DNA of 64,000 nt from NCBI RefSeq assembly GCF_036971445.1, contig NC_091480.1, positions 99,324,001 through 99,388,000 of the forward strand, written 5' to 3'. Source of the DNA: Narcine bancroftii. Lineage: Eukaryota. Positions 10,525 to 36,144 of this stretch are shown piece by piece; within the stretch, counting starts at the first letter, position 1, and every line of letters begins with the position of its first letter. A program made the translations under genes and the position numbers. Under the pieces are notes generated by a model. The model was not told the origin of the DNA, did no database searches, and saw only the letters and a list, made by a program, of their open reading frames with translations.

Positions 10525-10576
10525 TTACCCCTCCAAAAATCTTCGTCCGCGAAGCCAAGCCAAAGAAGAGAAAAAA
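10525..10576 (+). mobile_element. Extremely 5'-truncated RTE LINE insertion (about 52 bp) with 12-bp TSD
   Basis: Matches the 3' terminus of the RTE copies at 23817 and 43335 (ctcca.aaatcttcgtccgcgaagccaagccaaagaag); flanked by aactttccaaca at 10513-10524 and 10577-10588. Confidence 0.8.
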
Positions 10577-11410: not shown

Positions 11411-11869
11411 CTAACTAAACTTATACAGCTTTGTTAATTGCTGGAGTGTTGCCATGCTCATTTCCTCCTCAGTAGCACATTCCTCTTTTGCATTTCCCTC
11501 AGGATCCATCTCGGTTTCACTTTGCTGCTGTAAAGCTCCACTCAGCTGCTGCTCCAGCACCTGAACCAACCTTCGGCCTTTCTCCCTCTCTCTGCTGCTC
11601 AGGAAATCTACACTCAGGCTGAACCGTTGAGTCTGAGAAAGATGCAGTAGGATCCAATAAATTGCTTCAGCATCACCCGGTTGTAAATGATCACAAAGTA
11701 TGACCAGAAATTCACCAAGGAGTCCGAATCCAATTTCAGCATGGAAAATTCTTCCCAAGAGCTGGGCACCTAAGGCGAGCAGGAAGGCATACTTCTCTGG
11801 TTCCGTACAATAGTACCTTCTCCAGTCTCGGCTAAACTCTGCTGCTGTCCTCGGCTGGGAATCTGTGGG
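11411..11869 (-). CDS. CCDC103: CCDC103/DNAAF19 last coding exon (RPAP3_C-like domain)
   Basis: QPRTAAEFSRDWRR...LGRIFHAEIGFGLLGEFLVIL...RFSLSVDFLSSRERE matches the CCDC103 C-terminal domain; acceptor ctaactcttcccaaatcacAG at 11871-11870 in phase 0; stop TAG at 11413-11411. Confidence 0.92.
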   Translation of the reverse strand, partial: PTDSQPRTAAEFSRDWRRYYCTEPEKYAFLLALGAQLLGRIFHAEIGFGLLGEFLVILCDHLQPGDAEAIYWILLHLSQTQRFSLSVDFLSSREREKGRRLVQVLEQQLSGALQQQSETEMDPEGNAKEECATEEEMSMATLQQLTKLYKFS

Positions 11870-12419
11870 CTGTGATTTGGGAAGAGTTAGCATGACAAGA
11901 CAATGGTTTCAAACAATGTTGTTTCAATCACAGTGGCAGTCAGGCAGTCTCAACCCCTTCCGTGGGGACGTGCTCAAAACAGAAAATGTGTCCATGACAC
12001 AATATTAATTTAGCAATCTCATTCAGTAGTTAAGACAAGTCAGCTGTTCTGAGTATGAAATTGAAGCAGGGTACCGAGATAGTGTAAATGGAGCTCCTCT
12101 ATACAGTAACAATAGTTGTCTGGAACAATGAAAATGGTGAGTATTAACTCTGGGTCTCTTGCAATGATATTAACAGTGACTGCCCCAATGGAAGGAAGCA
12201 GGAGAAAAAATATTCTGAGCTCAGTGATATGGAGACGGATTCACATTCAAAGAGCAGGGTGATACTATTACAGAATTCACCTCCCTACGCCAGGATTTAT
12301 CAGATACACAAACTAGCGCATCTCAATGCTACCAGGTAACAAGCAGGTAGGTGGGAGGGATGAGAGGTAACCAAGGGAATTAATTTGCTCCATGGCAAAT
12401 TAACACCTAGTACGAAACA

Positions 12420-12935
12420 CTTGGAATATTGTATGTAGGTTTGGTCGCCAGCAACAGGAAGAATGTTATAAATTTGGAAAGGGTATAGAGAGGCTTTATA
12501 AAGCTGTTGCCAGGGTTAGGGAAGTGGAGTTACTGTGAGACATTGAAAAAACTAGGCTTTTTCCTTGGAGCAAAGGAGGTTGAAAGGGAATCTTATTTAG
12601 GTCTATAAAATCACAAGAGGTATTGATCAGGTGAATAATGACAGTCTGTTTCCTAGAGTGGGAGAATCTAAGACAAGAGGGCATAACTATAAGGCAAGAA
12701 GAGGGTGGGATACAGAAATGACGTGAGGGGACAGATCTTCACTCAGGGAGTGGTGGGCACATGGAACAAGCTGCTGGACAAAGCAGTGGAGGCAGGTATG
12801 TTAGCTTCCTTGATGGAACACCTGGATAAGTACATGGCTGGAAGGGGATTGGAGGAGTGTGGGTCGAATGTGGGAAAGAGTTGGATCGACATGGACAAGC
12901 TGGGCCTGTTTCCCTGCTGTAGAACTCTATGACTC
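12420..12935 (+). mobile_element. CR1-like LINE 3' fragment
   Basis: Degenerate CR1 ORF2 tail (IFTQGVVGTWNKL) and CTCTATGACTCCATG tail. Confidence 0.7.
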
Positions 12936-13854
12936 CATGCACTTCAATTTGCAGCATTCAAGATTTAATTTATTGTCGTGCAATAAAGACAGTGCAATAT
13001 TAAATGAAATTTGTTTTTCTCTGACAGATTTGGCATCAGCAGAAATTGCCTGAAGCATCTCTTACAGTCAGAGAAAGAGAAGCAAAAGAGAGTTCCCTTA
13101 GAGTCACCGGGTGTCCCTGAATTTGCCTCCAGGGCTCCCGCAGCCATACATACCATGCCTCCTCCTGACAAATGTTTCCTTCAGTGACAGTGTTAATCCA
13201 AATGAAGGCCGAAGATGGAAGTTTCCTTCCATGAGACACCGATGGGAGAGAAAGTAAGAAGAGATTATCTGCACAGACAGGAAGCATGAGCTCAGAAAGC
13301 CTGGGTTCTTTGAGCGTCGCCTCTCCTGTCTATGGTCCAGCAATGTTTGACTGCTCCTACATACAAAAGGTGGGACTCCAGAGGTTTTAGGATGGGGTGA
13401 TAGCAGGTTCAGAAGTTGTTCCAAAAGGTTTCAGATAAGAGCAGAAATAATTAAGTACTCAGAAAAAAAAATGGGAGAAAAGGAATGGCATAAAAATAGT
13501 AAGATGCAAGTAAAACTCAAACAGGACTTGCAGATAAAGTAGGCTGAAATAAATGAAATGCAAACACAGAAAAGAGGGAACTGAAGTGGAAAGGGAAACT
13601 CGTGCAATGATATGGTCAAAAACTGATTTTCAACCATGCATGAGTGTAACAGAAGGAGTGTAAAAGTGTGAAGGACAAAACTGTAATGGAAAAATAAATC
13701 AGATTTCATTTAAAATAAATGAAGAGCAGACCAAGAGGGCACATTGAATTGGGAAGACATCAGAGCAGAGATGGTATTCCTTGGGGGATCATCCAATCAG
13801 GCAACATGGGTTAAAACTGGAAACAAGATCATATTGTTGGGAGTATAATATAGA

Positions 13855-13961
13855 GGTATTGTTCATAACTTCACACATTGGACACATTGCATTCTACCTT
13901 CACTTTAGAATTCTTTGTGAGTGTCCTGAGTCAGAAAAATCATTCTACACGACATTATTAT
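13855..13961. repeat. 107-bp inverted repeat, left arm (partner 15691-15797)
   Basis: Reverse complement of 15691-15797 with one mismatch; also visible as the shared peptide VLFITSHIGHIAFYLHFRILCECPESEKS in ORFs 13781+ and 15680-. Confidence 0.92.
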
Positions 13962-15012
13962 CAATTTTCAGTGGGGATTAGAGACCAAATATGTCAGGAG
14001 ATTGCAGAGAGGTCAAGTCAAGGCAAGTCAAGTTTATTGTCATCTGATTTCACAAGTACAATCTGACCAAACGGCATTCTTCGGTCCTCGGTGCAAAACA
14101 TGCAGACACACAACCAGACATAACACACATATAGACAAACAATACATCTGCAGGACAAATATTTCATCCATACAAATAAATAAATAAATACATAGATGTT
14201 GTTTCATGAATGGTGAGAGCCTCGGAGAGTTAATGTGAGCAGTTCTTTGGTCGTTCCACATTCTCACTGTCTATGGGAAGAAGCTATTCCTCAGCAAGGT
14301 GCAAGAATGGTAGTAATAGTAGAGGATTTTAACCTCCAAATACAACCTCGACTACCATAGTGCTAAGAGTTTGGATGAGATGGAAGTTGTTAAATGTTTC
14401 TCAAGCATTATGTGGTCCAACTAGAGGGGCAATGTTTGACCTCCGCTTGGGAAATAAGACAGGGCAAGTTACTGAAGTGTCAGGGGAGGAACACTTTGGG
14501 ACCAATGGCCTTAGTTTTTAAATAGTTATGGAAAAGCTGTGGACTGGTGCACAAGTTAAAGCCCTGAATCGGGGCAGGACAATATTTGATGATATTAAAA
14601 AGGAACTTACAGAGGTTGATTGGGAGAGGATGCTGGCAGGTTAAGGGATAGTTGAAAAGTTGGAGGCTTTTAAAAGTGAGTGAGCATGTTCCTGTTGGAG
14701 AGAATGGAATCCAGATAACAAGAGTTTTTGAGGTCTCCAAGAAAAAGGAGGTATATGTCAGTACAGGTGTGGGATCAAGTTAATCCTAGAGGAGTATAGG
14801 GGATTTAGGAAAACACTCAAGAGGAAATTAGCAGGCACAAAGGGAACATGAGGAGGCAGGTTTGGCAGATAAATATTCTACAAGTTCTGGACTTGACCAT
14901 GAGAGAAACAGTTCACTCGTGCCTTTACTTCTAAATAATCCGAATGATAAATACAGGATTTCATTGACCCCAACACTTCAAAAGCTCCTTACTCGAAGTA
15001 CTGAATACTGAC

Positions 15013-15142
15013 CTTGGATAATCCCACCTGAACACTGCTCTTTGTACGTGATAACCTCACACATGTATTCCAGGGTTGATTTCTTGATCCCGATTTATCT
15101 CGCAATTCCAAGGGCTTCAGATGGGAAGCTAATACAATATCC
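15013..15142 (-). CDS. CCDC103: CCDC103/DNAAF19 middle coding exon (130 bp)
   Basis: Acceptor tgtgttctccAG; reads (R)DIVLASHLKPLELRDKSGSRNQPWNTC...GLSK; donor AAG|GTCAGT; phase 2 in and phase 0 out, matching both neighbouring exons; IVLASHLKPLE is the conserved CCDC103 motif. Confidence 0.92.
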
Positions 15143-15690
15143 CTGGAGAACACAAATGGCAAGATAGGATTTACTCACCGCATGCCTTCACATTTCCATC
15201 CTTTTGAACTTTTCACTTTTGCCATGCAAGCAAAATTAAAAAGGCAATCATTCACTAAATTATCTAGGAATAACAGGTTGAACTTTCTAGTCTTGCCCTC
15301 TATGGTTTGGCAACTTCTGTGGTACTAACTAATTCTAAATAGGACCTAACATTAACTAAGATCTTCAGTCTTAATACATAGATAGTTAACTTGTCAGTGC
15401 ATCCTTTGTGATCTCAATCATCAGCAATTTCTGACTGATGGAAACTGATTGTTATGCATGGTTCTCAGTACTATTACAATCCAGGGAGTGCCTAAAAAAA
15501 GAATAGTCCTCGTGCTTAGAAGAACACGATCAGTGGCAATTTCCATGGTCAACCTGTATAACCTTTTTTTTCCCCAGAATTACACCCACTGAACGCTGCA
15601 CCAAATCTTAAAAAAAATCTTTTAATCAAGCTACGAATTCATTTTGCAATTATTTTAAATTAGCATTACAGAAACTGCCTCAGGCCATCA

Positions 15691-15797
15691 ATAATAATGT
15701 CGTGTAGAGTGATTTTTCTGACTCAGGACACTCACAAAGAATTCTAAAGTGAAGGTAGAATGCAATGTGTCCAATGTGTGAAGTTATGAACAATACC
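15691..15797. repeat. 107-bp inverted repeat, right arm (partner 13855-13961)
   Basis: See left arm. Confidence 0.92.
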
Positions 15798-17229
15798 AAA
15801 TGTAACCAAATATCACACAGACTGGTTAAAATATAAAACCAAAACCATGAAAGTACATTAAAAAACATACCAGGGGTCTAGGTTAATTAGGTGTATATTG
15901 GACGGCACAGGCTCATGGGCTAAAAGAGCTTGTTACCATGCTGTATGTCTAATCTTTTTTAAAAATCATTGGATGAGAGGTTTCAACTATCAGATCCATT
16001 TGCAACCCTTTGCTACTCTGTAAAAATGATCAAAGGAACCTCAGAATAAGAGACTTCCTATCTTTACACCAACTCTTTCTTGAAAAGTAATTAGATGTTA
16101 ATGGGACACACATTAATGAATTGGCAAATACACAGTAGGTCTTAGGAAAGAAGGGTTACACAAGCTGTGAATCCCCAGAATCCTGTCTGATTTATGTCAT
16201 TCTACTATTTATTTCACGCAACTAGCATTTTTCTTTTAGATCATGTTAGTTTACACTCATTATAGAAAGCAGACCTCGTGCACAGCAATCCAAGGATTCT
16301 ACAATGACGCGATTGTAATCCCAATTACTGTAGGTAGTAAATTTTTCTTGGAATTCTGAAAATTTTACATTTAATTTTACTTCTCTGTTTTCCCTTGCTC
16401 TCACTCTAATCTTTTGTTTACTTTTACTGTATGAGATTTGTTTCCAAATCATCCTCTTCTCATTTTTTTTCTCTCAATTCTACCAGCCCAGTTCATTAAA
16501 GTCTAGGTTGTCCATTGTACTTTCTTTCCTGATGTCAGCTTCGATTAACACCTGATGTGTTACATTTGAGCTGAAGCTGTATGTCTTAACTTGATGTCCC
16601 ATTAGGTGCCTCACTGTAGTAAGATTTAGCCCATTGCATTTGTGGGCTGTCCATTTTTAATACAACACTTCAGCTCCCTGTCAGTGTAGTTGTCTTATAA
16701 AACAATCCTAAGACATGAAATTGCTGCTCTGAACCAGAGTGAAATCAGTACCCACACAATGGAAGTGTTGCCCTAAACGAGCTTCTCAAGAGAGACCTGC
16801 ATTTGCATTGTGCCTCTCACGTCTATTTTAAAACAGCTAAAATACTTTTTAGCCAAATAAATATTCTTAAGGTGAAGTTACCATTGTAACAGGAAACGGA
16901 AAATAATTCTAACATTCAGAAAACCAAGGAAAATAAAGAAAGTTTGTGAGAGTCAGGGGAAAGCAAATAATTTTCACATCACAGGCATCCAGAAACAACA
17001 ATTTGTCATCTTGAAAATAATCTATTTTAGAAAAATTCATGTTGGAATAAAATTAAAAATAGGACATTGGTGACACATTTTACTACTCTACAAAGCAGTG
17101 CCATTGAATCTTTTAATTCCAAATGAAAGAGAAAGCAGGAAAAAAGTAGAAATTCTGTCTGTCCCACATGAAAAAGAATCTCTGGTGAGTATCTGGTACA
17201 AAATGAATAATTTAACTGGTACAAGAAAA

Positions 17230-19100
17230 AAAAATTACTCCAAAAACACCCTTGTTTTAGAATAGACTAATTCCTCTAGCTATGCACTGATAATTTAATT
17301 CTACATGCATAGTTCCATAAAGGGATCAGATATGTTGAAGATTGTTATGTACAAGGGCAATTAATGTCATTTGAACAATTAAAAAATAAATAACAATACA
17401 ATCTTTTGTTACTTTCAGCTAAGAGCTTTTCTTAGAGAAGGATATCCGACTATGACATTACCAGAGTGAAGTGAAATGGAGATTCTAATTCAAAAGGGGA
17501 CCACAAAGAAGTTATGTATTCTTTAATCCAGTTGGGTACTCCTAAACGGGAGTTACATAGATCAAAAACAAAGATGGGAATCAGGCTTGAATATTAGTTT
17601 TTTGGGGTTTTTTTTAATAAACTTTATTTATTTAAAGAATCATTAATAGTAATATAAAGTACATTCCAAAAAGACAATTTTATGAATATACATAAAAAAT
17701 AAAAATAAAAATAAAGACAACTTTTTAAAAAATCCCCACCCATCAGCCAGCTCTCTTAAGGAGAGCTAAAAATATATAATAAACTAAGAATATATAATAA
17801 ATCAAAATACATCTAAATGCATATATTCCAAATATGCTAACCACTTATTAACAAAAAAAGAATAATTATCATGTAGATTATATGTAATTTTTTCTATAAC
17901 AACACAAGCTTTCAATTCATTCTGCCATCACATTATATTAATCACTGTTATCTTTCCAAGTACTTGCTACACATTTTCGAGCTACAGACAATGCTAAATA
18001 CATAAATGCAATTTGAAATTTATCCAACCCTAATCCCTTTAAAGAAATCATATAACCCATTAAAAAATAGATGGATCTAATGGTAACAAAATTATATAAT
18101 TTTTCAAAAATTAATTTAATTTCATTCCAGAATGGTTGTACATACATACAAGACCAAACAGCATGTAAAAAAGTTCCAGTACATACACCACATCTAAAAC
18201 AAGAATCTGAATTACTAAAACCATATTTTTAGGCTTGAATATTAGTATTGATGATAAGACCTGGTTGAACTTATGCTACAACTGCATGAACAACACAATT
18301 AATGTAAGATATAGGCTGGTGTAATATAATTTTTTGTATCAGCTTTATCTTACCCCACAAAAATTACATAAACTAAATCCTAATTTTTCTGATATATGTT
18401 TTCGATGCAGGGAAAAAAACGGATACTTTTTTTTACATTCCACCTGGTCATGTTCAAAATTGAAACCCTTTTGGGGAAACAAGAGTTTTATTAAATCAAA
18501 TTATTGGGAAACAATTGCCTCTAAGTCCAGAATTGTTTCTTTTAGGAAATATTACAGACTTAAAACCTAAAATGAGGCAGTCCAAATATCAATTAGAGTT
18601 TCTTAAAATTGGATTGGCAGTGGTCAGGAAATGTATAGCAGTTACCTGATTCAACCTTGGAACTAGCCTATTGGAACACCAAAATGCATAGTTGCGTTCC
18701 CCTGGAAAAAATCACTTACAACTGAAGGAATAAATACAACATGGTTTTGCAGGTATGGGAACCTTACTTACAAAATGTAGGGTTGAATACTTAATAAATA
18801 AGATACTATTCTATTTCTTTTTCTTCCTTTTATTTGAATTTAGATAAAAATAATTGGGTCTCTTCATCGTTGAATTGGGTTTCATATCTAGATCACTCCT
18901 CTTTTTCATTTCTTTCTCCTATTTCCTTTTCTTTCTTTGACTTTTTTCCTTTTTCACCTTTTTTCTTTTTCATTAGGGGTTTTGTTTGGGGAAGGGGAAT
19001 AGGGGTCATATTTGGAATATGTATTAATGACTCACATCTAATTACTTATCTGTGATGATAATTTGGTATTGTTTGTTGATAAAATCAAAAATATTCAAAA
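17230..19100 (+). mobile_element. L1-clade LINE 3' fragment interrupted by a nested antisense L1
   Basis: LYLTPQKLHKLNPNFSDICFRC...H.TWSCSKLKPFW (ORF2 C-terminal CCHC region); A-rich end near 19100. Confidence 0.75.
17599..18230 (-). mobile_element. Nested 5'-truncated L1 with 16-bp TSD
   Basis: TSD aggcttgaatattagt at 17583-17598 and 18231-18246; T-tract (polyA on minus) and tttatt signal at left end; ORF 17938-18147 VQPFW...LSVARKCVASTWK. Confidence 0.85.
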
Positions 19101-19577
19101 AAAAGGAAAAAGAATCTCTGGGTTGTATGTGATGTTATGTACAGCATGTACTCTGACAATACATCGGAACTTTGACTCGACTTTGTCTTACTGTCTCTTC
19201 CGAAAAATTACTTCACGAAAAGTGCAACATTCCAAGTGCAGCAGCAGTTTGTTCTTTTATTCCTTCCTCCCGCCCCAAAGTCTTTGAAATTAAACTTGGA
19301 TGCAGATCCCTGACAAAGCAGTCCATAATTCTGTGATGGTTCAAGCTGTAGAGCTTATGTACAACCAAAATATTAAAAGCAAAAATTTGCAGTTATGATC
19401 TCTCTTATACAGTTTGTAAATATTCCAAAATACTTTTGAAACTCTACTTTGAGATGCATTTATCCTGATTGCCTGCAAATAGTCCCTAGAGTGCAGGCAA
19501 TAAAATGGTTGTTCAAGATTCCTTTATTGTCATGTAACAGTACAGAACATGTAATATTACACAAAGTAGTCTTCTGC

Positions 19578-20483
19578 CAGTGGCAGATTAACCATTAGGC
19601 TGAGTAGGCTTAAGTCTAGGGACCCGGAAGGGAGGAGAGCCTGTCACAACCACTGGAACACCAATGTAACCACTTGTCAATATGGGCTCACGTTAGTCCT
19701 GGGTCTACCCATCAATCAAGGCCCGTGGAAGTACCCCATTCTCCTGTAAATCAGCACCGAGGTCTCAGTCCCATCTATCATTTCAGGTTCCTCTGGTCCC
19801 AATACTACTTGTCAATCAATGCACACATTTGTACACGTGTGTAAGTCTGATGTCTGCCTCCTGCAGTGAGCTTGGCTCATGTCCATTTTATTCAATGCTC
19901 AGCATCACTCATGGGATGTTTACTTTTTTAAACAAAACTCTGCCTTCTCCTGTGTAATTTTGTATCAAGACTGAGTTTTTTTTTTAAGAATTGTTTTTAT
20001 TTATCCTTTTGTAATTATGCGGGGCGAGCAGACGGCTTCTGTAAGGTAAAGCTTTGTTTGATTTTAATGAAGTTTTTCCTCCCCTCCTCAACCAAACACC
20101 AACCGGTGTATTTGCAGCACATCCATGATGGATACATTTAGAATATGCGAGGGCATCACGCCCAAAGGCTAATAAATGGAACAATTTTTTAGATTTACAT
20201 GCTGCTATTGACACTTTTGTAAACTAAAAGCACGGAAGATTTTTAAATTACAAATGTAAAGAAAATGAAAAATAATTGAATAAAAGGGCAGTAATTCATC
20301 CATATAACTTTATATTATACATGTAGTACATTATACATACACAACCATTTAAGTTAGTTAACATAACAACATCACTTTATTCTATTCAACGAAGGGTGGG
20401 GGCTGTGGGGCAGGGGGGCAAGATCAAGGGGAGCCTTACTCAAGCTCAGCCTATGGGCCCAGGTGGTAGTTAATCTGCCACTG
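19578..20483. mobile_element. Non-autonomous hAT DNA transposon (906 bp)
   Basis: Perfect 15-bp TIRs CAGTGGCAGATTAAC / GTTAATCTGCCACTG; 8-bp TSD TCTTCTGC at 19570-19577 and 20484-20491; no transposase ORF. Confidence 0.9.
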
Positions 20484-22176
20484 TCTTCTGCAGACAGAAT
20501 CACTATTGGTGTTGCCTGGAGCCCTTTACAGTAAGAGAGAAAGAGAAGCAAGGGTCCATTCAGAGACATTGAGCGTCTGTGGATTCACCTCCAGAGCTCC
20601 CGCAGCCTCTGCAGCCACACAGATTCCTGTTTGATCCATCAGCCTTCGGGAGCCCTTCTTGGCCTCAGCAACTTCTCAATTCCCATGAACCAGTCTCCAG
20701 CAGTTCGCACCCCGAGCGGGTCCCCTGACCAAAAGTTGTCATAGCCTGTGTGTGCCCTTCATCAATTGAGCCCCTCACTGGTCCAATGTCATGGTCACCA
20801 TCCTGTAGGGTCATTGTTTTTCCAACTAAGCCTGCATTTTATATTTATATTAATTGATGAACCTCTACAGATCAGCCTCTCACTATCTATCCTTTGATTT
20901 TTAATTCCTAGAAGGCTCTGAAAGGATGGAAAGTGACAATTGGCAAGTTATTGGCAAAATGTGTTAGAACTGCATAATTCCAGATCAATTAGCACAAGTA
21001 CCTGTAGAATAGAAACTGAAAATGAAGCACTAAATTTATGAAGTAAAAAAAACCGCATCAAAAATTATGAGGGCATAATTGGCCATTGTTTAAGGGTTTC
21101 TAAAATACAACTTTTCATCAGCGTATATTCGGAATTAATATGGCCTGCTAAAATGAAGGAATTGAGAAAGGCATTTATTTCGGTTGGTGACACTCACCAG
21201 GTGCCAGCAATAACCAAAGACAAGATCATTTTTTTCCTGAAGGAACAGAACTATTCAGTACAAGATCTGATTTGGACTGGAAGGGCAGGTAAACAGCCAA
21301 GGGATTCAACATCTCTTCACACAAACCAAGACTGATATGGTCCAATCATGTAAGATCATAAGATATTGGAGCAGAAATAGGCCACTCAGCCCATTGAGTC
21401 TGTCCCACCATTCAATCATAAGTTGAACCATTTTACCCCTTAGCCCCATTGCCCGGCCTTCTCCTCATAATCTATGATCCCCTGGCTAATCGAGAACCTA
21501 TCAATCTCTGCCTTAAATACACCGAATGACTTGGCCTCCACAACCACTTGTAGCAACAAATTCCACAGATTCACCAAATTCACCATCATTTCTGTTCTAT
21601 GCGGACACCCTTCAATCCTGAAGTTGTGCCCTCTAGTCCTAGACTCTCCCATCATGGGAAATGTGAGGGTTGGGTATCGACAAAAATGATAAATCCTCGG
21701 CCTGATTTGGCGGTGGTCAGATCAGATTCTTAGTGCAACTTAATTTCTGTTATGAGCTATCCTAACGCCTTTTATGAAAATCTCATAAATTATGTGACCT
21801 TCAATGGTGTGGTTCGCAGAAAAGCATTGTCAAGTATCTCTGTGTAACATCTCATTGCATATGTGTCATCATGCACCCCTTCAGTAATAAGCTGCTTGCA
21901 CTTAACCTAGCAGTTGTGTTCTGGATACACCACAATATAAGCAGCAATTTTCCAGTTACTAATGAATGAATGGTGCAATGATGGACTGGAAGTGAAGGAG
22001 GGGCCAGTTAGACGGGGACTGGATAGGCTGGTGAAGTACAATACTCATGGGAGGCATGTTGCTTGTGCCAAGTGAATCAGAAGCACCAAATGTTCTCTAC
22101 ATCCTGATACATTAGAATCTACAACAACTGGATGTAAAATGTTGACATTCCTTTGCAAAATGAAATTTATCATTAC

Positions 22177-22319
22177 CTAAATTCTTCATAGGATCCCACT
22201 TTCTGATGGACAGCCCTAAACTTGGCATCGTTTTCTCTTTTATGTTTCTCATCGAGAGCCACGGCAACCTCTAACTCCCGCTCCAGAGCCTGAAAATCAA
22301 GGGTCTCACTCTCTTCCAT
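22177..22319 (-). CDS. CCDC103: CCDC103/DNAAF19 first coding exon (coiled-coil / dynein-attachment N-terminal domain)
   Basis: [47 protein letters not shown](R) aligns with human [48 protein letters not shown]; donor AG|GTAATG at 22176; acceptor cctgttttccAG 9 nt upstream of the ATG implies a non-coding exon 1. Confidence 0.93.
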
Positions 22320-23654
22320 TTGTACCAACTGGAAAACAGGACAATAATTACATGTTAAGATGTAGTTCACACATCTTTAAGGAGTGATAAAACTGCTGCT
22401 CAACAAAGCAGCCACCTAGTGCTGGTGCTCAAACCAATACCCACTCATTGTTTCATTTCAGACCATGGACTGATCCTCCGAACCACTGCTCATCATTGTT
22501 CCAAGTTGTCGAATGATTTGCCACCCCATTTGGTAGAAAGAAGATATCATACAGGAGTTAAGCAAGTCAGCCTTTTTAACCTGCTCAACCATTCAATAAG
22601 ATCAGTTGATCCAACCTTGGCCTCACCACACACTTCCACTCACTCCATACACTTTATTGACCGATATTTAAATGGGCCTTTTTTTCCACCTAGAACACAT
22701 TTGATCTCGCAGACTTCACAGACGCCCGTGATGGGCAATGCCAAAGGTTCATATCTCTCGCTGATAGAAGAAATCCCCATTTATTTGACATGGATTATTA
22801 CCCTACCATGATATATAAACCCTCAAGGTTAAACATTCTCTCGGCATCTACGAGATTAAATCATATATCAACTTCTTTTCCATCCGGCAATTAACCTAGT
22901 GACCTTCTGTACTCTGTCATAGAATCTGCAACACAGAAAAAGGCCCTTCAGCTCAATGTCCATGCCAACCAAGTTAGTGCCACGTGCCTGCATTCAGCCC
23001 ATATCCCTTGTCTTGAATGCAAGAACATCCTTCCTTAGTAATGGAACCAAAACGTGTACAGTACTCCTGCTGCAACCGCACTAATGCCCTGTAAAATTGT
23101 ACCACGTTTATACTTTCTTACTTCACTAACCTTTGTACAAGGGGCCACCTTCCATTAGCTTTCCTACTCACTTGCTTGACCTGCATGCTAATTTTTTCCA
23201 TGCAGCACAAAGCTTTGTCGTGGCACACTGTTCAAACTATTTGCTTTTTCATTCTGAATACTCTCACATTTAGAACATAGAACACTGCAGCTTAATACAG
23301 GCCCTTCAACCCTCGATGTGGTGCTGACCCATATGTTCCTTCCAAAAAAGTACTAAACCCTCCTGCCTCGTAACCCTCCATTTTTCTTTCATCCATGTGC
23401 CTGTCTTCATTTCCCCAGACTCTCCTGCCTTTTCTTTCCCACTCATGCCTGATCTAATCTATATCCCTTTCCAGATTATCCGTGCACTCTTTGGAAATTT
23501 AATAACCTACCTACTTTGTACTATCAACAAATTAAAATGAAATATACTTGGTTCCTTCATCCATTAATATAAATTATAAATATTTGAGCACCCAAAGAGT
23601 CAGATTACCTATCTGAAAATGATTCTCAACCTTCTATCAGTTAGCTCCAGGAAC

Positions 23655-23729
23655 GTGTGAAAAAGAAAAAGTGTATATCATGGCTAATGTGATTTATGGT
23701 GTGAAAAATAAAAAATAAAAAAAATAAAA
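23655..23729 (+). mobile_element. Short poly(A)-tailed retroposed insert (probably the extreme 3' end of an L1) with 16-bp TSD
   Basis: TSD agttagctccaggaac at 23639-23654 and 23730-23745; A-rich tail containing AATAAA. Confidence 0.8.
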
Positions 23730-23816
23730 AGTTAGCTCCAGGAACATCCATGCCAAAATGCTAATCCTAACCCTTCTTAGTAATATTTTGGACTCTAAAG
23801 ACTTCCTATTTGTTGT

Positions 23817-24524
23817 CTTCTTTGGCTTGGCTTCGCGGATGAAGATTTATGGAGGGGGTAAAAAGTCCACGTCAGCTGCAGGCTCGTTTGTGGCTGACAA
23901 GTCCGATGCGGGACAGGCAGACACGATTGCAGCGGTTGCAAGGGAAAATTGGTTGGTTGGGGTTGGGTGTTGGGTTTTTCCTCCTTTGCCTTTTGTCAGT
24001 GAGGTGGGCTCTGCGGTCTTCTTCAAAGGAGGTTGCTGCCCGCCAAACTGTGAGGCGCCAAGATGCACGGTTTGAGGCGTTATCAGCCCACTGGCGGTGG
24101 TCAATGTGGCAGGCACCAAGAGATTTCTTTAGGCAGTCCTTGTACCTTTACTTTGGTGCACCTCTGTCACGGTGGCCAGTGGAGAGCTCGCCATATAACA
24201 TGATCTTGGGAAGGCGATGGTCCTCCATTCTGGAGACGTGACCCATCCAGCGCAGCTGGATCTTCAGCAGCGTGGACTCGATGCTGTCGACCTCTGCCAT
24301 CTCGAGTACTTCGACGTTAGGGGTGTAAGCGCTCCAATGGATGTTGAGGATGGAGCGGAGACAACGCTGGTGGAAGCGTTCTAGGAGCCGTAGGTGGTGC
24401 CGGTAGAGGACCCATGATTCGGAGCCGAACAGGAGTGTGGGTATGACAACGGCTCTGTATACGCTTATCTTTGTGAGGTTTTTCAGTTGGTTGTTTTTCC
24501 AGACTCTTTTGTGTAGTCTTCCAA
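23817..24524 (-). mobile_element. Young 5'-truncated RTE-clade LINE
   Basis: Minus strand reads FGRLHKRVW...VYRAVVIPTLLFGSESW...QLRWMGHVSRMEDHRLPKIMLYGEL...CNRCNRVCLSRIGLVSHKRAC (one internal stop); CpGs retained; 9-bp TSD atttgttgt at 23808-23816 and 24525-24533. Confidence 0.9.
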
Positions 24525-25353
24525 ATTTGTTGTATTCTCATGTTATCTACACTGACTTTGCTTAATTGCCTTATGGTTTTCTATCTTCTTAATAATGGAT
24601 TCCAGCATTTTTCTGATTATAAATGTTCAGCCAAATGCAAGATTCCTGCTTCCTGTTTCCCTCCTTTCTTGAATAGTGAATACTCAGACTTTTTTTTCCA
24701 TTTCTCCATCACAGAATAGTACACCACAAATCAGCCCGTTTGACCCATGACATCCAGAGTGACCATCAAATACATCCACAAAAATTTTTTCTATGTCCCC
24801 ACCAACAAACCTTCCCCTACCCCATTTCCCCCTAATGAAAAGCAAATGGCAGCCCTACTACAGCTGCTGTGATGGGCAGAGATGCCACTGGTGAGATGTG
24901 TGTGGTGGCACTAGACAGAGTATAGAGGAGGTTCACCAGGATGTTGCCTGGATTGGTGGACCCTACTGACAAGTAGAAATTCTGCTTTGCCTGCAGGGAA
25001 AAGAATCACAGGGTTGTATGTGACATCACATAGGTACTCTGACAATAAATCTGAACTTTGAACTCTAGTTATGGCAAGAGATGCCCTTGTTTTCTCTGGA
25101 GCAAAGCGGCCTGAAGGGTGACCCAAGAGAGGTATATAAAATAAGATGAATAAACAGTGCAGAGTCAAACTCTTTTCCCCATGTTATGAGGATACAAAAC
25201 ATGAGGGGGTGGGGTGAGGGTGAGTGGAAGAAGGTTTAAAAAGAATCTGATGACAAGTTTCTTCTTCACAGAGAGTGGCTGATACCAGGAACTTGCTGCC
25301 AGAGGAGGTATCAGATACAATTACTGTATGTAAGAGAAACTTGGACACTTGTG

Positions 25354-27614: not shown

Positions 27615-28294
27615 CCCCTCCCCACCTTCATTCCCCCCTCCCCACCTTCATTCCCCCCTCCCCACCTTCATTCCCCCCTCCCCACCTTCATTCCCCCACT
27701 CCGCACCTTCATCCCCCCCACTTTCATCCCCCTCCCCACTTTCATTCCCCCTCCCCACCTTCATTCCCCCTCCCCACCTTCATCCCCCCTCCACACCTTC
27801 ATCCCCCCTCCCCACCTTCATCCCACCTTCATCCCCCCTCCCCACCTTCATCCCACCTTCATCCCCCCCTCCCCACCTTCATCCCACCTTCATTCCCCCC
27901 TCCCCACCTTCATTCCCCCCTCCCCACCTTCATCCCCCCTCCCCACCTTCATCCCCCTCCCCACCTTCATCCCCCCTCCCCACCTTCATCCCCCCCTCCC
28001 CACCTTCATCCCCCCCTCCCCACCTTCATCCCCCCCTCCCCACCTTCATCCCCCCCTCCCCACCTTCATTCCCCCCTCCCCACCTTCATTCCCCCCTCCC
28101 CACCTTCATCCCCCTCCCCACCTTCATCCCCCCCTCCCCACCTTCATCCCCCCCTCCCCACCTTCATCCCCCCCTCCCCACCTTCATCCCCCCCTCCCCA
28201 CCTTCATCCCCCTCCCCACCTTCATCCCCCTCCCCATCTTCATCCCCCTCCCCATCTTCATCCCCCTCCCCATCTTCATCCCCCCTCCCCACCT
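27615..28294. repeat. C-rich minisatellite, about 20-bp unit CCCCACCTTCAT(C/T)CCCCCCT, about 34 copies
   Basis: Exact 20-nt periodicity visible at 28021-28200; G-rich on the minus strand. Confidence 0.95.
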
Positions 28295-28329
28295 GCATTT
28301 TCTCCGTCTTCCCCTGCATTCATCTATCC

Positions 28330-28630
28330 CCTCGACTCGACCCTCTACCCTTTACGCCGCCCCCGCACTAAAGTCTCGCTGCGATCCCTCCAGACGGTCG
28401 TTCCGGCTACTGACCCCCCCAGGCCGGACCCTCCGCTCCGATCCACCGGACCGTCCGCTGTTGCCACGGTTACCGGCCGCGCCGCGCGTGCCGTTGCCCT
28501 GACAATGGGCCTGTTGCCACGTGACCGTCGACGTGCCGCGGCGGGGTAACGACTGGTGGTCGAGGGAAGGGAGCTGGTGCCGCTGATGGGACCCCAACAC
28601 CGGAGCTCAAGTAAGGCCGCGTCCGTTCCG
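28330..28630. promoter_or_regulatory. CpG-rich island, probable (bidirectional) promoter of CCDC103
   Basis: Only non-transposon CpG-dense segment in the window; about 6 kb upstream of the CCDC103 ATG exon, which requires a non-coding exon 1; plus-strand donor CAA|GTAAGG at 28610/28611. Confidence 0.75.
28460..28550. promoter_or_regulatory. Cluster of RFX X-box-like motifs plus an E-box
   Basis: GTTGCCACGGTTAC (28460-28473), GTTGCCCTGACAAT (28493-28506), GTTGCCACGTGAC (28513-28525, containing CACGTG), half-site GGTAAC (28545-28550); consensus GTNRCC-N0-3-RGYAAC; CCDC103 is a motile-cilia gene. Confidence 0.7.
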
Positions 28631-28732
28631 CACAGCAAAGGACTGCTAGCCCCAGCTCCCACCCCTCCATACCTTTCCCTAGCGCCTGCTCAGTCCGCTT
28701 CCCCTTTGACAGGATCCAGGTGAACTGGGAAC

Positions 28733-30259
28733 TGGGCCAAGGATGGGCAGGGGGAGACAAGAGGAGGAGCTGCACTTTGGTGGGTTAAGGATGGGGGCCG
28801 AGGATGGGCAGGGGGAGACAAGAGGAGGTGGTGCACTTTGGTGGGTTAAGGATGGGGGCCAAGGATGGGCAGGGGGAGACAAGAGGAGGAGCTGCACTTT
28901 GGTGGGTTAAGGATGGTGGGCCAAGGATGGGCAGGGGGAGACAAGAGGAGTTGGTGCACTTTGGTGGGTTAAGGATGGGGGCCAAGGATGGGCAGGGGGA
29001 GACAAGAGGAGGAGCTGCACTTTGGTGGGTTAAGGATGGGGGCCAAGGATGGGCAGGGGGAGACAAGAGGAGTTGGTGCACTTTGGTGGGTTAAGGATGG
29101 GGGCCAAGGATGGGCAGGGGGAGACAAGAGGAGGTGGTGCACTTTGGTGGGTTAAGGATGGGGGCCAAGGATGGGCAGGGGGAGACAAGAGGAGGAGCTG
29201 CACTTTGGTGGGTTAAGGATGGTGGGCCAAGGATGGGCAGGGGGAGACAAGAGGAGTTGGTGCACTTTGGTGGGTTAAGGATGGGGGCCAAGGATGGGCA
29301 GGGGGAGACAAGAGGAGGAGCTGCACTTTGGTGGGTTAAGGATGGGGGCCAAGGATGGGCAGGGGGAGACAAGAGGAGGAGCTGCACTTTGGTGGGTTAA
29401 GGATGGGGGCCAAGGATGGGCAGGGGGAGACGAGGAAGAAGGTGCACTTTGGTGGGTTAAGGATGGTGGGCCAAGGATGGGCAGGGGGAGACAAGAGGAG
29501 GAGCTGCACTTTGGTGGGTTAAGGATGGGGGCCAAGGATGGGCAGGGGGAGACGAGGAAGAAGGTGCACTTTGGTGGGTTAAGGATGGTGGGCCAAGGAT
29601 GGGCAGGGGGAGACAAGAGGAGGAGCTGCACTTTAGTGGGTTAAGGATGGTGGGCCAAGGATGGGCAGGGGGAGACAAGAGGAGTTGGTGCACTTTGGTG
29701 GGTTAAGGATGGGGGCCAAGGATGGGCAGGGGGAGACAAGAGGAGGAGGTGCACTTTGGTGGGTTAAGGATGGTGGGCCAAGGATGGGCAGGGGGAGACA
29801 AGAGGAGTTGGTGCACTTTGGTGGGTTAAGGATGGGGGCCAAGGATGGGCAGGGGGAGACAAGAGGAGGAGCTGCACTTTGGTGGGTTAAGGATGGTGGG
29901 CCAAGGATGGGCAGGGGGAGACAAGAGGAGGAGCTGCACTTTGGTGGGTTAAGGATGGGGGCCAAGGATGGGCAGGGGGAGACAAGAGGAGGAGCTGCAC
30001 TTTGGTGGGTTAAGGATGGGGGCCAAGGATGGGCAGGGGGAGACAAGAGGAGGAGCTGCACTTTGGTGGGTTAAGGATGGTGGGCCAAGGATGGGCAGGG
30101 GGAGACAAGAGGAGGAGCTGCACTTTGGTGGGTTAAGGATGGTGGGCCAAGGATGGGCAGGGGGAGACAAGAGGAGGGAGGTGCACTTTGGTGGGTTAAG
30201 GATGGGGGCCAAGGATGGGCAGGGGGAGACGAGGAAGGGAGTGTACTTTGGTGGGTTAA
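28733..30259. repeat. G-rich minisatellite, 61-62-bp unit, about 25 copies
   Basis: Unit gccaaggatgggcagggggagacaagaggaggagctgcactttggtgggttaaggatgggg with few variants. Confidence 0.97.
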
Positions 30260-30324
30260 CGTGAAACCAAGGCAGGGTGACCTGTGAATGATTGGAGCCT
30301 GGGCTGCATGACAGAACAGAGGAA

Positions 30325-31155
30325 CTTTGGCATATTGAACACTGCAGCACAGAAATCAGGCCTTTTGGCCCTTTTAGTCTGTACTGAAGCATCATTCCAC
30401 TTGTCCCACTGACCTGCACCCATTCCAATACCATCCAGACCTCTCCCATCCATGCATCTATCGAATTTATTCTTAAAACTTGATCCTACATTTGCCAGTC
30501 AGATAGCAGCTCATTCCACCCTCCCACCACTCTCTGAGTGAAGAAGTTCCTCCTAAACCTTTCCCCATTTTCCCCTAAAGACATGCCCTCTAATGTTTAT
30601 CTCTTCTAATTTAAGTGGAAAGAGCCTGCTCATATTTACTCTGTCTGATCCCCTCATAATTTTGTAAACCTCTATCAAATTTCCTCTCATTCTTCTACAC
30701 TCTTAGGGATTAAGTCCTGTAGCTCAACTCGAAGACCCAGCAACATCCTAGTAAATTCTTCTCTGCACACTTTCAATCTTACTGATAGCTATCCTGTAGT
30801 TAGATGACCAAAACTACAAACAACACTCCAAATTTGGCCTCACCAATGTCTTATACAACTTCACCATAACATCCCAATTCCTATACTCAATACTTTAATT
30901 TATGAAGGCCAAGATGCCAAAGCTTTCTTTACAACCCTGTCCACCTGTGACACCACTTTCAGGGAATTATGTATCTGCATTCCAAGATCCCTTTGTTCCT
31001 CCGAAATCCTCAGTGCCCGACCATTTACTATGCATGTCCTTTCTTGGTTTGTCCTTCCAAAATGCAATACCTCATACTTGTCTGCATTAAATACCATCTG
31101 CCATTTTCTGACCCATTTTTCCAGTTGGTCCAGATCCTTCTGAAAGCTTTGAACA
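30325..31155 (-). mobile_element. CR1-like LINE 3' fragment
   Basis: FQKDLDQLEKWVRKWQMVFNADKYEVLHFGRTN..EEQRDLGMQIHNSLKV. Confidence 0.8.
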
Positions 31156-32914
31156 TAGTTCTGTGACAGTGGTGACACGGGTAGACAGAGTGATGTAGGC
31201 ATTTGGCATCGTTGCCCTCGTTGGTCAGACCATTGAATACAAGAGCTAGGACCTTATGCTATAACTGTACACCAAAATACCCTAATTAACCTGTTTATTT
31301 TTGAATGGTGGGAGGAAACCCTCGCAGACATGGGGAGAACGTACAAACTCCTCACAGACAATGCCGGTTTCTAACCTGTATCGCAGGCTCTTTCATAGCA
31401 TTGTGTTAACTGTGCCACCCTTGGGGTAAGATATCTTGCAGCTGGAAAATGAACAGAGAAGATTCATCTGAATGTAACTGGGACTGACAAGTTTAAAATA
31501 TAAGGAGATGGTTTGAGTTTTCTCCTTGCAGCATAGGAGGCTGAAGAAGGGGGAAGGAAAACTTATAGATGTGTATAACATTATGAGGTGCATGGATAAA
31601 AAAAATAGTCATGGACTTTTTCCCAATATAGGGAAATCTAAAACTGGAGAACATAGATTAAAAGTGAGTTGGGAGAGATTTCAAAGTGACCTGAGAGGCA
31701 TGTTTTTGACAGAGTGTGGTGAGTGTGTAGAATGAACTGCCAGGACAGGTTCATGCATTGAAAGTGTTTGGAGGGATATGGGCCAAATCCTGGTAAATGA
31801 GACTAGCTTGGGTCGACAATTTGGTAGGCATGGAAAAGTTTAACCGAATGGCATATTCCCATGCTGTAAAACTCTATGACTATGCTATTTCCCAAATTTT
31901 AACCCCCCCCCGACCCTAGTATAAGGGTCTTCTCCTGAATTCCGTTTGATTGGAATATTTGGTGCCTCTCAGCTTGAATTAATCCACGTGGAATCATCTA
32001 ACCTTTGTTGTGAAGATGCAAGGTCACCTCAGCTGTTTTTCATGTAAAGCACACAGTCTTTTTCAGATTTTCGAGATGTCTCCAGGCTCTGAGTTCTAAA
32101 ATTTTTCCTTTATTCACTTTCTCTGCATGCGCATGTCATTTTTATAAAGACATAATGAAAATCTCTTTTTTTTCCAGCATTTTCTGCTTGTATTTATGAT
32201 AGGGAGACCAGATCTACAAGAGTGGTCTAATTCAAATTCTAGGTCAATTTTTTCTGCATTTACATTTTAATCTGGATATTCAATAATTTTCTTATATATT
32301 CTGACATTTTTGTTACCTTGTGCAACAAAAATGCACTACATTTGTATCTCATTTTTTTTTCTGTTCCTTTAAATTATTTCCAAATTATAATTGGTCTTTC
32401 TATGCCTCCTGCCAAAACTCCATGCACTTTTGTTTATTCATTTCCAGCAATTACTTTTATAATTTTGAATTCTAAGTAGTCACATAACACATTGCCACAA
32501 GCACCACAAACATGGGAGTCTTTCACAAATGAAGTTATTAATTTGATCTGTTCATATTATTTCTGTAAACAAATAACCACAATCCCAGCACTGAGGGTAG
32601 TAGGCTTCTGGAGGAGATGGTTGACACAGGTACTGTTGCAGTGTTTAAGAAAAATTTGTATGGATACATACATGGACCAAATATGTATAGAGGGCCAGAC
32701 TCGTTCAGTGGGGCTTGTGTGGGTGGGGTCTTTGGTTGGCATAGACAAATTGGGACAAAGGGCTGTTTCTATGCTACATAATGCCAGTACCAGTTTTACC
32801 ATTTAGATCCAGCTTTATATCCAGTTTCAGCCCATTTGTATTCAGTCACATCTTTAATGTCTGTGATGTCCCATGCTTTTTGCAATTCTATCCTCTTTTT
32901 ATTTCAATTTAAAA

Positions 32915-33125
32915 AATTAGACATACAGCGTGGTAACAGACCCTTTCAGCCCATGAGCCCGTGCCCCCTGATTAACCTCCAACCCCCGGTACATTTTGAA
33001 ACGTGGGAGGAAACCAGAGCCCCCAGTCACAGGGAGAATGTCCAAACACATTACAAACAGCGCCGAATTCAAACCCAGGTGGCTGGCGCTGTAATAGTGT
33101 CGTGTTAACCACTACACTAATCATG
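32915..33125 (-). mobile_element. HE1/V-SINE-like SINE
   Basis: Same tRNA-like head (GGGTTTGAATTC) and body as the copies at 9945 and 57450. Confidence 0.65.
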
Positions 33126-33257
33126 TATTCTTTGTGTAGATAAAAATCTGGTGCAGATGCTGAGACATGACCTTGCCTTTTGAAATTAATCTTAATAATA
33201 TTCTTGGCTTTCAGATATTTTTCTTGAAGATTCTAATATCTTTCCAGCCAATAGGAT

Positions 33258-33890
33258 ATGTCAATGCTCTCAAATTTTTGCAAAGCCTTTCAAAATTTTT
33301 GCTGCAAATATTGCATAGGCGATGATAGTCTTTCACAACAGACAAAGCCAATATTACACAACAGAGGAAAAAAGCAAAGTGGTTCAAGGAAAGAAATCCA
33401 TTTCACCAACAGTTCCTTTGAGACGAAGGGTATGCAGCTGAATGAAAGGAAACCAATAAAAGAGCAGAAAAAGAAAACAGAGAATCCAAAGGTTGAGGAT
33501 TCAAAAGGCCAAAAGGGGAAGCTTTCTCCAGTGCTCAGAGGCAGAGCACGCAGACAGACCAGCAGGGAGAGTGTAAATGGTAGACACAGCAGTGTAGCAC
33601 ACAGGGCCCAAGGAAACCGATCCACCAGCAGAGAGAGGACAAAGGACAAAAACTATCCCAAAGGCAACAAAGGAAAGATAGGCAAACAGCCCAGCAAAGA
33701 GAGCCTGAAAGTCAGAAACAATCCAGCAATGAAGAGAGGCAAATCAAACAGGCAGGCCAAGAGAGAAGTGATGAACGTCAGAAAAGGTTCAGCAGTACAC
33801 AAAGAGAGCAGAAGCAGTCAGCTCAGCAAAAAGCCAGGGACCAAAAAAAATCACAGTATCCAGAAAGATTACAGGGAGATGGTGCAGTAA
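33258..33890 (+). CDS. Putative orphan 210-aa Lys/Arg/Ser-rich protein with N-terminal Cys cluster and five degenerate 22-aa repeats
   Basis: Non-transposon ORF; acceptor ttcttggctttcAG at 33213-33214; in-frame upstream TGA at 33225-33227; AATAAA at 34425-34430; no homologue recognised. Confidence 0.5.
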   Translation: MSMLSNFCKAFQNFCCKYCIGDDSLSQQTKPILHNRGKKQSGSRKEIHFTNSSFETKGMQLNERKPIKEQKKKTENPKVEDSKGQKGKLSPVLRGRARRQTSRESVNGRHSSVAHRAQGNRSTSRERTKDKNYPKGNKGKIGKQPSKESLKVRNNPAMKRGKSNRQAKREVMNVRKGSAVHKESRSSQLSKKPGTKKNHSIQKDYREMVQ

Positions 33891-36144
33891 ACAGAAGATA
33901 AGTGATCATTAAATGACTGCTGGATACACAGGGAAAGCAAGCAGTCAGCACCATGAAAAGTGAGTGAGAAAAGTCATTGCAGTGGAGAGAGTTTGAGCAG
34001 GTGGCAGGTCAGATAGAGGTTTGAGAAGGGAAGATGCCACAGCAACCACAGAGAAAGTGAAAGGCAGGTTGTGGGGGGAAAAAAGGCAGTGCAGTGCACC
34101 GAGGAAAATGAAGCCAATGCCCCACAAGATAAAATGAACAGAAAGACACTGGGGTTTGCAAAGGGAGATTGAGTAGGGGCCCAGTTCAAGCAAATGAGAG
34201 GCGACAGAGACAGAACTATCTGTTCAAACACAGAGACTCATACAAAAACTAGTGGAGCACAGAATCAGCAAGAAACACACCACAGAAAGACAAATTAAAA
34301 AAATGGCAAACAATGTGTGAGTTAAAATAATTAATAACTATGACATGTTTTTGTGTTGCTTCCAGAATTTGTTTAAACATTTGGGTTGAGATATTCGCTC
34401 ATGCTCATACATCTCATCCCAATCAATAAATATATGTTGAGGAAATTAGATGACAATAGTATGGTGCCAACTGCCAAGACAACTTGAACACCCATGCAAA
34501 ACAGTCCAACAATTGGCAAAAAATGTTAAACAAAAATGTCTATAGATGCTGGGATTGCATGCAATGCACAAATCTGCTGTATAAACTTATCAGGTCACAT
34601 AACATTCATAAGAATTAAAGGGAAGCCAATGTTTTGCCCCTGGGCTCTTTGTCAGGAATAGGCTCAGGCCTGAAATGTCAGTTACCCTTCATTGCCTCTG
34701 GATGCTGCATGACCTGCTGAGTTTCTCCAGTTTGGGCCTGGGCCCTTCAGCAGGTATAAGCAAAAACAGTCAGGCTCTAGAATAAAAAGGAGGAGAGTGG
34801 GGGGGGGGGGGTGGGGGTGGGAGAAAAGAGCAGGGGGAGGAACAAAAGTTAATAAGAACATAAGAAATGGGATCAGGAGTCACCCATCCGACCCATCAAA
34901 CCTGCTCCACCATTCAATAAGATCATGGCTCATCAGACATAGGAACTTGGGTTTTATAGAGTACGAACATAAGGATGTTTTGTTGAAGTTCTATAAACTC
35001 TGATTTCTTGCAGTGGGACATAGTGTGCAATTCTGGGAGCACACAAAAGAGAGGGTGTCCCCTGCACAAAAGGTGGTTCAATGGAGAAGTTGAGGTTATT
35101 CTCCTCAGAGGAGAGAAGATTGCCCAGAGATTTCATGGAAGTGTTCAAACATCACAGAGGTTTAGGTAAAGTGAAGAAAGAAAAGGAATTGGCAAGTGAA
35201 GGAAAGTATTTGTGGGTTAAAGTGAAACAGCTACAGAAAGGGACTAGTTTCCTGCCATGTAGTGACCAGAATTTTACTGAGAACCAAACTATTCTAACAT
35301 TCCAACTTGTATTCCAGACCTGAGCTTATAAAAAATAATTTCCTGTGCCCTTCTAAATACTTGTTGACCTGTTCTGCTACTGTTAAAGTCATGGAATCAT
35401 ACCACATGTCAACAGCTGTTCATGCCACCCATCCATATTAATCCCATCTTCCAGCATTTACTCTATAGCATTTCAATGTCGGAACAATTAATCACAGTTA
35501 TTGCTTCCAGTATTCTCTCCTGGTACTCAATCACTCTCTTGGTGAAAGGCCTTCCTCAGATCCTCTCCAAATCAGATTGTTTTCACAACGTACTCTATGT
35601 ATTCAATAATTTCCTTAGACTTTCCTGAGACAATAATTAAAGGCTTAAGTTTAGAAAATGAACTCGAAATTAGTCTTTTCACATTCTCAGGATCATCCTA
35701 AGTACTTCATGGGCCCAAACCTTTTGGCCAGTCTCACATGTGAATCCTTATCAAAGGCCTTATTGAAGTCGATATAAACTACATCTACTGCAGTGTCTTC
35801 ATCAATACACTTTGTAACCTCCAAAAAAAAAAATCAGGTTTGTCAGACAGGATCTGCAATAGTCAAAACTATGCTGGCTATCTCTGATTCAAAGTCCCTG
35901 CCCTTCCAAGTGATCATCAATCCTGTCTGTAAGAATTTTGTCCAATAGATTCCTGATATCACTTCACAGGTCTTACCTGTTGCCCTTAAAAATTAGAACA
36001 AAATTTACCATTATCCCATAAGCTGCTACCTCACCTCTGGACATAGAATATAAAAAATGTCAGCCAGACCTCCAGACATTTCTTTCCTTGTCTTCCATTG
36101 AAGCCTGAGATAAATCTGTGGTCATGCACTGCACTGTCCCTCTT

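Follow-up and report, generated by a model that had tools for sequence, protein, structure and literature searches.

An unnamed two-exon gene beside CCDC103 in Narcine bancroftii encodes a basic protein with a conserved cysteine head and 22-residue repeats

Is an open reading frame (ORF) that resembles no named protein a gene, and, if so, what might its product do? The question is raised by a 64,000-nucleotide stretch of the Narcine bancroftii genome (assembly GCF_036971445.1, contig NC_091480.1, forward-strand positions 99,324,001 to 99,388,000; hereinafter "the window," whose numbering we use), in which an ORF at 33258-33890 on the forward strand encodes 210 residues. An earlier note made from the letters of this stretch had taken it for an orphan basic repeat protein of sperm or cilium, encoded head-to-head with the ciliary gene CCDC103. 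We find that the locus is a real, spliced, two-exon, protein-coding, single-copy gene of a cartilaginous fish, with the following parts.

28584 to 28610, forward strand: exon 1, short form, with the donor CAA/GTAAGG; its 5' end lies at or before 28584, and a contig loose end matches this stretch and runs on into the acceptor
28690 to 28719, forward strand: 3' end of exon 1, long form, with a second donor, CAG/GTGAAC, and a second contig loose end
28611 to 33214, forward strand: intron, 4604 nt from the first donor and 4495 nt from the second
33215 to 34221, forward strand: exon 2, to the end of RNA contig cover (82 contigs of run X1, high depth to 34215)
33258 to 33890, forward strand: coding sequence, 210 residues, isoelectric point (pI) 10.7, Lys+Arg 26%, net charge +37
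34294 to 34299, forward strand: ATTAAA, candidate polyadenylation signal, the nearer of the two to the end of RNA cover
34425 to 34430, forward strand: AATAAA, candidate polyadenylation signal, present in the sequence, with contig cover ending by 34221

The transcript evidence comes from X1, one of three public runs, which was typed as RNA by guess and contains 66% of the sampled words; its contigs were aligned over 33135-34520, and the donor-side matches were made by script, with one contig per junction. Summed X1 depth is about 4,100 to 24,000 across the exon 2 bins, and about 6,000 or more over 33215-34215, versus 4.75 in the intron bin before the acceptor (contig depth cannot rank genes by abundance). 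At the acceptor, two X1 contigs overhang with sequence identical to parts of the upstream island that end at 28610 and 28719, each with GT next. Such spliced ends and the thousand-fold step in depth would be expected of RNA. The gene anatomy first proposed for the locus is largely borne out: the ORF and its acceptor are as described (TTTCAG ends at 33214), the in-frame upstream stop is in fact one of three between acceptor and ATG (33225, 33234, and 33252), and the proposed use of the 28610 donor by a transcript from the X-box island is supported by a loose end that matches exon 1 and is followed by GT. The AATAAA at 34425 is indeed present, but its use and a 3' end near 34450 find no support in RNA contigs whose cover reaches only 34215-34221, and the ATTAAA at 34294 is an alternative candidate. 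No contig cover, and no genomic loose end, was found past that point; since contigs may have been filtered out, the missing cover does not fix the 3' end. Runs X2 and X3 gave no contigs at the locus, a weak hint of tissue restriction that may also be a filter effect.

The protein is almost certainly made, and with this composition 210 codons would stay open by chance with a probability of 3e-6. Exon 1 contains an upstream ATG at 28586. In the short form, the frame that it opens is 42 codons long and overlaps the main ATG; in the long form, it is 48 codons long and terminates before that ATG, so the choice of donor could change translation. An extra A in the A-run at position 33842, carried by a single X1 contig with a depth of 834 out of about 25,900, would shift the last codons and is likely slippage. 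The intron contains a 1.5-kb minisatellite of 61-bp period together with interspersed repeats.

In agreement with the earlier note, the ORF is not part of a transposon. Searches of the 3.3-Gb genome with the protein, with its N-terminal 50 residues, and with the DNA (a search that skips very common words) each returned a single match, and none of the bases in 33135-34520 was repeat masked when compared with 414 kb of window plus flanks. Nor did it match a known family: against Pfam, the complete ORF had no match at E<=1, and two parts of it and P0005, a version of the relative described below, had none at E<=10; PDB sequences gave no match at E<=10, and the ESM Atlas gave no usable match for either protein. 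AlphaFold2 produced no confident fold from a two-sequence alignment (mean predicted local distance difference test score 47.8, predicted template modelling score 0.11), a low-confidence model that would be expected of a disordered protein and equally of so small an alignment. We also considered whether the ORF might belong, as an exon, to EFTUD2 or some other known gene, and rejected this, given that EFTUD2 lies 6.2 Mb away, that the junctions enter upstream of the in-frame stops, and that the scan of ORFs in 30300-64000 given below yielded only retroelement families and one subthreshold match. SPATA32 was considered as a positional orthologue; the genome gave no match to it, a result that is uninformative since the controls were blank too.

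Contrary to the initial impression that the protein has no recognizable homologue, a HMMER scan of 1.84 billion representative proteins returned two matches, P0001 and P0002. The first is an unnamed 204-residue protein from the Logan assemblies (46% identity, E 4.5e-18), whose reciprocal search matches only this locus in the genome (E 2.4e-20) and whose alignment with the ORF (as P0001/P0005) stands at z 25 against shuffles. Its cluster has nine members, all from Logan assemblies and none named, with 42 contig records (longest 0.9-2.3 kb) and six amino acid variants, those besides an A/V one being rare. Five of the nine versions (P0001 and P0003-P0010) start at the second Met and have no Cys head, which is probably an effect of gene calling. 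The second match, P0002 (E 1.5e-7), is an algal repeat protein in which one short stretch was matched seven times, and it was set aside as a chance repeat. The relative appears, by inference, to come from another cartilaginous fish.

The comparison bears out both the predicted fast evolution, with identities of 38-46%, and the retention of the reading frame, for which a second organism keeps more than 200 open codons. Conservation is uneven along the protein: 25/57 residues are identical in the linker, which has several gaps, 42/92 in the gap-free repeat block, and 5/16 in the tail. Word-index protein searches returned 0 of 68 candidates with the single protein, 1 of 1,988 with the two-sequence profile, and 0 of 7,218 among longer proteins, and a metagenome scan gave 70 pattern matches with none confirmed. 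The window's own protein is absent from the 15-billion-sequence collection and no named relative was found by the protein searches, so the gene is probably unannotated as a protein, as judged from the collections searched only. No description of it was found in the literature covered, which leaves out most subscription papers, including older dogfish sperm-protein work. An apparently abundant, conserved gene without a named entry in the collections searched means that homology-based annotation can miss lineage-restricted genes of sharks and rays.

The best-conserved block is the N terminus.

33258 to 33317, forward strand: N-terminal cysteine cluster C8-x6-C15C16-x2-C19

The sequence given earlier for this end, FCKAFQNFCCKYC, was confirmed at residues 7-19. 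Identity to the relative over the head is 12/17 aligned residues (z 8.0 against shuffles), with all four Cys kept alongside K-A-F-x-N-F. The head has no Gly2, and the sequence shows no signal peptide and no long hydrophobic or transmembrane stretch; because four Cys stand among Phe and Lys in this setting, the head looks like an S-acylation site. In this protein, its helical hydrophobic moment is 0.48 (p 0.018).

The second conserved element is the repeat block.

33552 to 33815, forward strand: four 22-residue units, consensus R-Q-x-S-R-E-S-(hydrophobic)-N-x-R...(K/R)-G
33816 to 33887, forward strand: degenerate fifth unit and tail

The 22-residue period that had been read from the sequence is real: lag 22 is the top autocorrelation lag for the whole protein (z 4.1, family-wise p 0.003, 3000 shuffles) and stands at z 6.1 over residues 90-210 (p 0.0003, 3000 shuffles), lags 66 and 132 top the DNA autocorrelation, and the relative independently shows a 22-residue period (p 0.001). 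The count of five consecutive units needs correction, as units 1-4 stand (leave-one-out DNA scores 21.8, 11.9, 28.9, and 18.5) whereas unit 5 is degenerate, scoring -12.3 and matching the eight true units of both species at only 2-5 of 22 residues. R1, S4, R5, and E6 are each conserved in seven of the eight units, and the block aligns without gaps over 92 residues and in register between the two proteins; the relative carries one additional unit-like stretch, of 21 residues, ahead of unit 1. The true unit order scores best of 24 cross-species pairings (40, next 37), and therefore the common ancestor already had units that differed from one another, and unit length has been conserved since. Charge is even along the repeat region, at about +4 to +7 per 22 residues, and [RK]xx[ST] sites number 12 and 15 in the two proteins.

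A decayed sixth unit just past the stop, also suggested in the earlier note, found little support. The distance from VHKESR to the segment IHRESK (33924) is 129 nt instead of 132, a shift of one codon from the register, and two stops precede the segment; at the DNA level it is similar to the unit 4/5 boundary with a pointwise p of 0.017, the best of seven segments, which is not significant after correction, and it is a faint remnant at best. Reading the 3' untranslated region (UTR) as a decayed run of units was likewise set aside as weak, the best ungapped UTR score having a p of 0.22. Separately, 12 residues encoded in another frame at 34078-34115 match the latter half of unit 4, with an E of 0.002 when six sequences were searched, which may hint that the array was once longer.

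Where the gene might be expressed is suggested by its promoter, for which the neighboring CCDC103 exons are also needed.

28300 to 28733, no strand assigned: unique CpG island by CpG profile, likely the shared promoter of the unnamed gene (forward strand) and CCDC103 (reverse strand)
28460 to 28550, no strand assigned: RFX X-box-like sites, with 14-mers at 28460 (2 mismatches) and 28493 (3 mismatches)
22177 to 22328, reverse strand: first coding exon of CCDC103 (PF15867, E 5.3e-11), whose acceptor precedes the ATG by 9 nt
11414 to 11908, reverse strand: RPAP3_C exon of CCDC103, whose middle exon lies near 15130

Exon 1 of the unnamed gene lies within the island, and a start of CCDC103 there is probable from gene anatomy. 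As its acceptor sits 9 nt before the ATG, CCDC103 needs a noncoding first exon toward the island; a second CpG-rich stretch on that side of its first coding exon, at 23809-24525, consists of repeated sequence, and the island is the sole nonrepeat CpG-rich stretch on the way upstream. Because CCDC103 requires an upstream exon, the island is the only such stretch, and a candidate minus-strand donor lies near 28414, head-to-head sharing is likely. The island is set between two G/C-skewed minisatellites, one of 20 bp (36 copies, 27615-28299) and one of 61 bp (25 copies, 28734-30259), so that one minisatellite likely sits in the first intron of each gene. CpG islands in the flanks (L006, L010, L022, and L037) overlap repeated sequence too.

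Within the island, X-box half-sites number 5 in 490 bp versus 0.44 expected from the window mean, and sites with at most two mismatches occur four times in the 64-kb window and once in 350 kb of other stretches; these are candidate sites, matched to the X-box consensus. We consider it likely that RFX factors drive the gene from the promoter that it has in common with CCDC103. Fast sequence change is typical of reproductive proteins, and spermatids are the likeliest site of expression because RFX2 governs spermiogenesis genes through X-boxes and because the rapid divergence fits a reproductive protein; by this reasoning, the main site of the gene is probably the male germ line. In mouse, spermiogenesis genes have RFX2 sites concentrated at their starts (PMC4498915).

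The explanation that we prefer, tentatively and at somewhat below an even chance, is that of a spermatid protein anchored to membrane by S-acylated Cys, with disordered basic repeats binding an acidic cytoskeleton under the control of phosphorylation. The balance tips slightly toward the Cys/Phe/Lys head being S-acylated by a DHHC enzyme, which would keep the protein attached to a membrane on its cytosolic side. The R-x-x-S-R-E-S core is a target for basophilic kinases, and it seems an even call whether the repeats attach to a polyanion, with tubulin tails or acidic lipids the most likely partners, and have that binding switched off as such kinases phosphorylate each unit. For TSSK kinases, PMC10164148 yielded no usable consensus. 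Such a tethered polycation, with one phospho-switch per unit, could link membrane to an acidic polymer and release it upon phosphorylation. A design of this type is described for MAP6d1, in which three palmitoylated N-terminal Cys target the Golgi and plasma membrane and a separate module binds microtubules (PMC4272302).

Several observations weigh against this proposal. The tissue of X1 is not given, its RNA type was guessed, and the analysis had no silent control stretch; X-boxes are a mark of ciliated somatic cells too, and those found here may act on CCDC103 only. The upstream frame that overlaps the ORF in the short form could lower translation. Neither MAP6/STOP nor any other Pfam family matched, and the amphipathic signal of the head is missing in the relative (moment 0.21, p 0.59). 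All conservation claims rest on two distinct sequences. The relative is also richer in Arg and in RS/SR pairs (16 versus 6) and has several runs resembling nuclear localization signals, which suits a role in chromatin.

The role just named would make the protein a transition-protein- or protamine-like component of spermatid chromatin, with DNA as the partner of the basic repeats, serines that gain phosphates for loading and lose them for condensation, and four Cys that bind zinc or form disulfides. We regard this as unlikely, though it is the alternative with the most to commend it: the net charge of +37, the pI of 10.7-11.4, the abundance of Ser, the RS/SR pairs and basic runs in the relative, and the deep RNA cover in one of three runs all agree with it, as do the accounts of protamine-like proteins as variable and 6-40 kDa in size (PMC11607694) and of TNP2 as poorly conserved across species (PMC9258737). 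Yet Lys+Arg make up 26-28% with 17-20 acidic residues, compared with roughly 40% in transition proteins (PMC9258737); a Glu is conserved in seven of eight units, no H1 winged-helix, protamine, or TP2 family was matched in Pfam, the Cys stand among Phe at the extreme N terminus, and neutralizing DNA needs no strict 22-residue period. Less probable still is a structural protein of the elasmobranch sperm accessory fibers, such as the two longitudinal columns by the axoneme, cross-linked through its N-terminal Cys and not lipid anchored. A repetitive, basic, fast-changing protein with a conserved Cys cluster, encoded beside a motile-cilium gene, would suit such fibers, and elasmobranch flagella have two accessory columns (PMC11856307); on the other side, there are four Cys only, all at one end, neither a coiled coil nor a fold is predicted, and the localization is putative.

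We give the same low probability to a membrane-associated basic protein of somatic tissue, be it motile-ciliated epithelium, nervous tissue, or electric organ. The unstated tissue of X1, the activity of RFX promoters in all ciliated cells, and the frequency of acylated, basic, disordered proteins in neurons (MAP6d1) leave room for it, whereas 38-46% identity and six variants among nine database members fit the fast change of a reproductive protein, and the protein searches found no bony-vertebrate relative. Divergent transcripts are common at CpG promoters, and the upstream ATG at 28586 and the lack of a named database protein might likewise point to a noncoding divergent transcript of the CCDC103 promoter with an incidental ORF; this is highly improbable when more than 200 open codons, the same start region, the Cys cluster, and the repeat register are shared by two organisms.

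The preferred reading, a membrane-anchored spermatid protein, has a bolder and quite doubtful extension, to which we give slightly less credence than to the fiber or somatic alternatives. The protein might be a sperm membrane-to-microtubule tether specific to sharks and rays and independent of MAP6/SAXO, whose 22-residue period reads the microtubule lattice, helping to build the helical head or the column-reinforced tail, and whose gene took the promoter slot beside CCDC103 that EFTUD2 holds in mammals. By simple arithmetic, a 22-residue unit would be about 8 nm long when extended, which equals the interval between tubulin dimers, and a lattice spacing could explain why the repeat period is gap-free while the linker is not. 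The fixed period lends itself to a direct test of lattice binding.

The surroundings of the locus bear on this promoter partnership.

5599 to 6897, reverse strand: FAM187A-like gene with immunoglobulin domains

To the left, at a distance of about 100 kb, is an ACE-like exon, and on the right, 30-180 kb away, are exons of LIMD2-like and MAP3K2/3-like genes, from flank scans of 150/833, 75/345, and 71/263 unique ORFs, longest first, which may miss small genes. EFTUD2, with a PHOSPHO-type phosphatase gene next to it, maps to 93.14 Mb of the same contig; NMT maps to 99.77 Mb and HEXIM to 86.6 Mb, and the region is shuffled relative to human 17q21-23. As in human, where EFTUD2 is the head-to-head partner of CCDC103, CCDC103 is followed by FAM187A and probably faces a divergent gene across a CpG island; here, in contrast, the divergent gene is the unnamed one and EFTUD2 is megabases away. 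The locus appears to show a ciliary gene with a promoter partner other than that in mammals. Among 242 ORFs of at least 55 residues in 30300-64000, we found only retroelement families and one subthreshold LDLRAD1_C match. Long reverse transcriptase frames of the long interspersed nuclear element type, broken by a stop, occupy 58192-60117 on the forward strand, and a weak, sub-cutoff match to PTR2 (peptide transporter) lies between the ACE-like gene and FAM187A (L029:8716-8988, reverse strand).

Set against known systems, the protein resembles MAP6 and MAP6d1 (STOP, SL21) in being small, with clustered N-terminal Cys ahead of a separate, here putative, binding region. This is an analogy of design only: neither the ORF nor P0005 matched an Mn module (Pfam STOP family), as MAP6/SAXO proteins would, the RQxSRES units are not Mn or Mc modules of MAP6, and the Cys spacing is C-x6-CC-x2-C here versus C-x4-CC in MAP6d1. 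The palmitoylated Cys of MAP6d1 are residues 5, 10, and 11 (PMC4272302).

With TNP2 and protamine-like proteins, as portrayed in PMC11607694 and PMC9258737, it shares a basic, Ser-rich, fast-changing sequence with Cys on the N-terminal side; its 24 kDa lies in the 6-40 kDa range given for protamine-like proteins (PMC11607694), but its 26-28% Lys+Arg go together with 8-10% acidic residues. Unlike TNP1 and TNP2, however, it has no TP1 or TP2 match, and its Lys+Arg content is 25.7% and 27.9% in the two proteins, against about 19% Lys plus 21% Arg in transition proteins (PMC9258737). It also differs from both groups in keeping an acidic residue per unit and a regular 22-residue period, and from the protamine-like PL-I in having no H1-type winged-helix match in Pfam or PDB and no confident fold. 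It is a candidate for the unexplained sperm machinery of elasmobranchs (helical head, accessory columns) or for an unrecognized chromatin protein.

Cylicins, which belong to the cytoskeleton of the sperm head in mammals, are basic proteins with KKD/KKE triplets as repeats. The unnamed protein is, like them, basic, repetitive, and poorly folded, but it has no cylicin N-terminal domain in Pfam, is far shorter, and carries Arg/Ser units behind a Cys head. It represents, in sum, a small protein family that is new but of a well-known sort, namely lineage-restricted, basic, disordered, and repeat-bearing.

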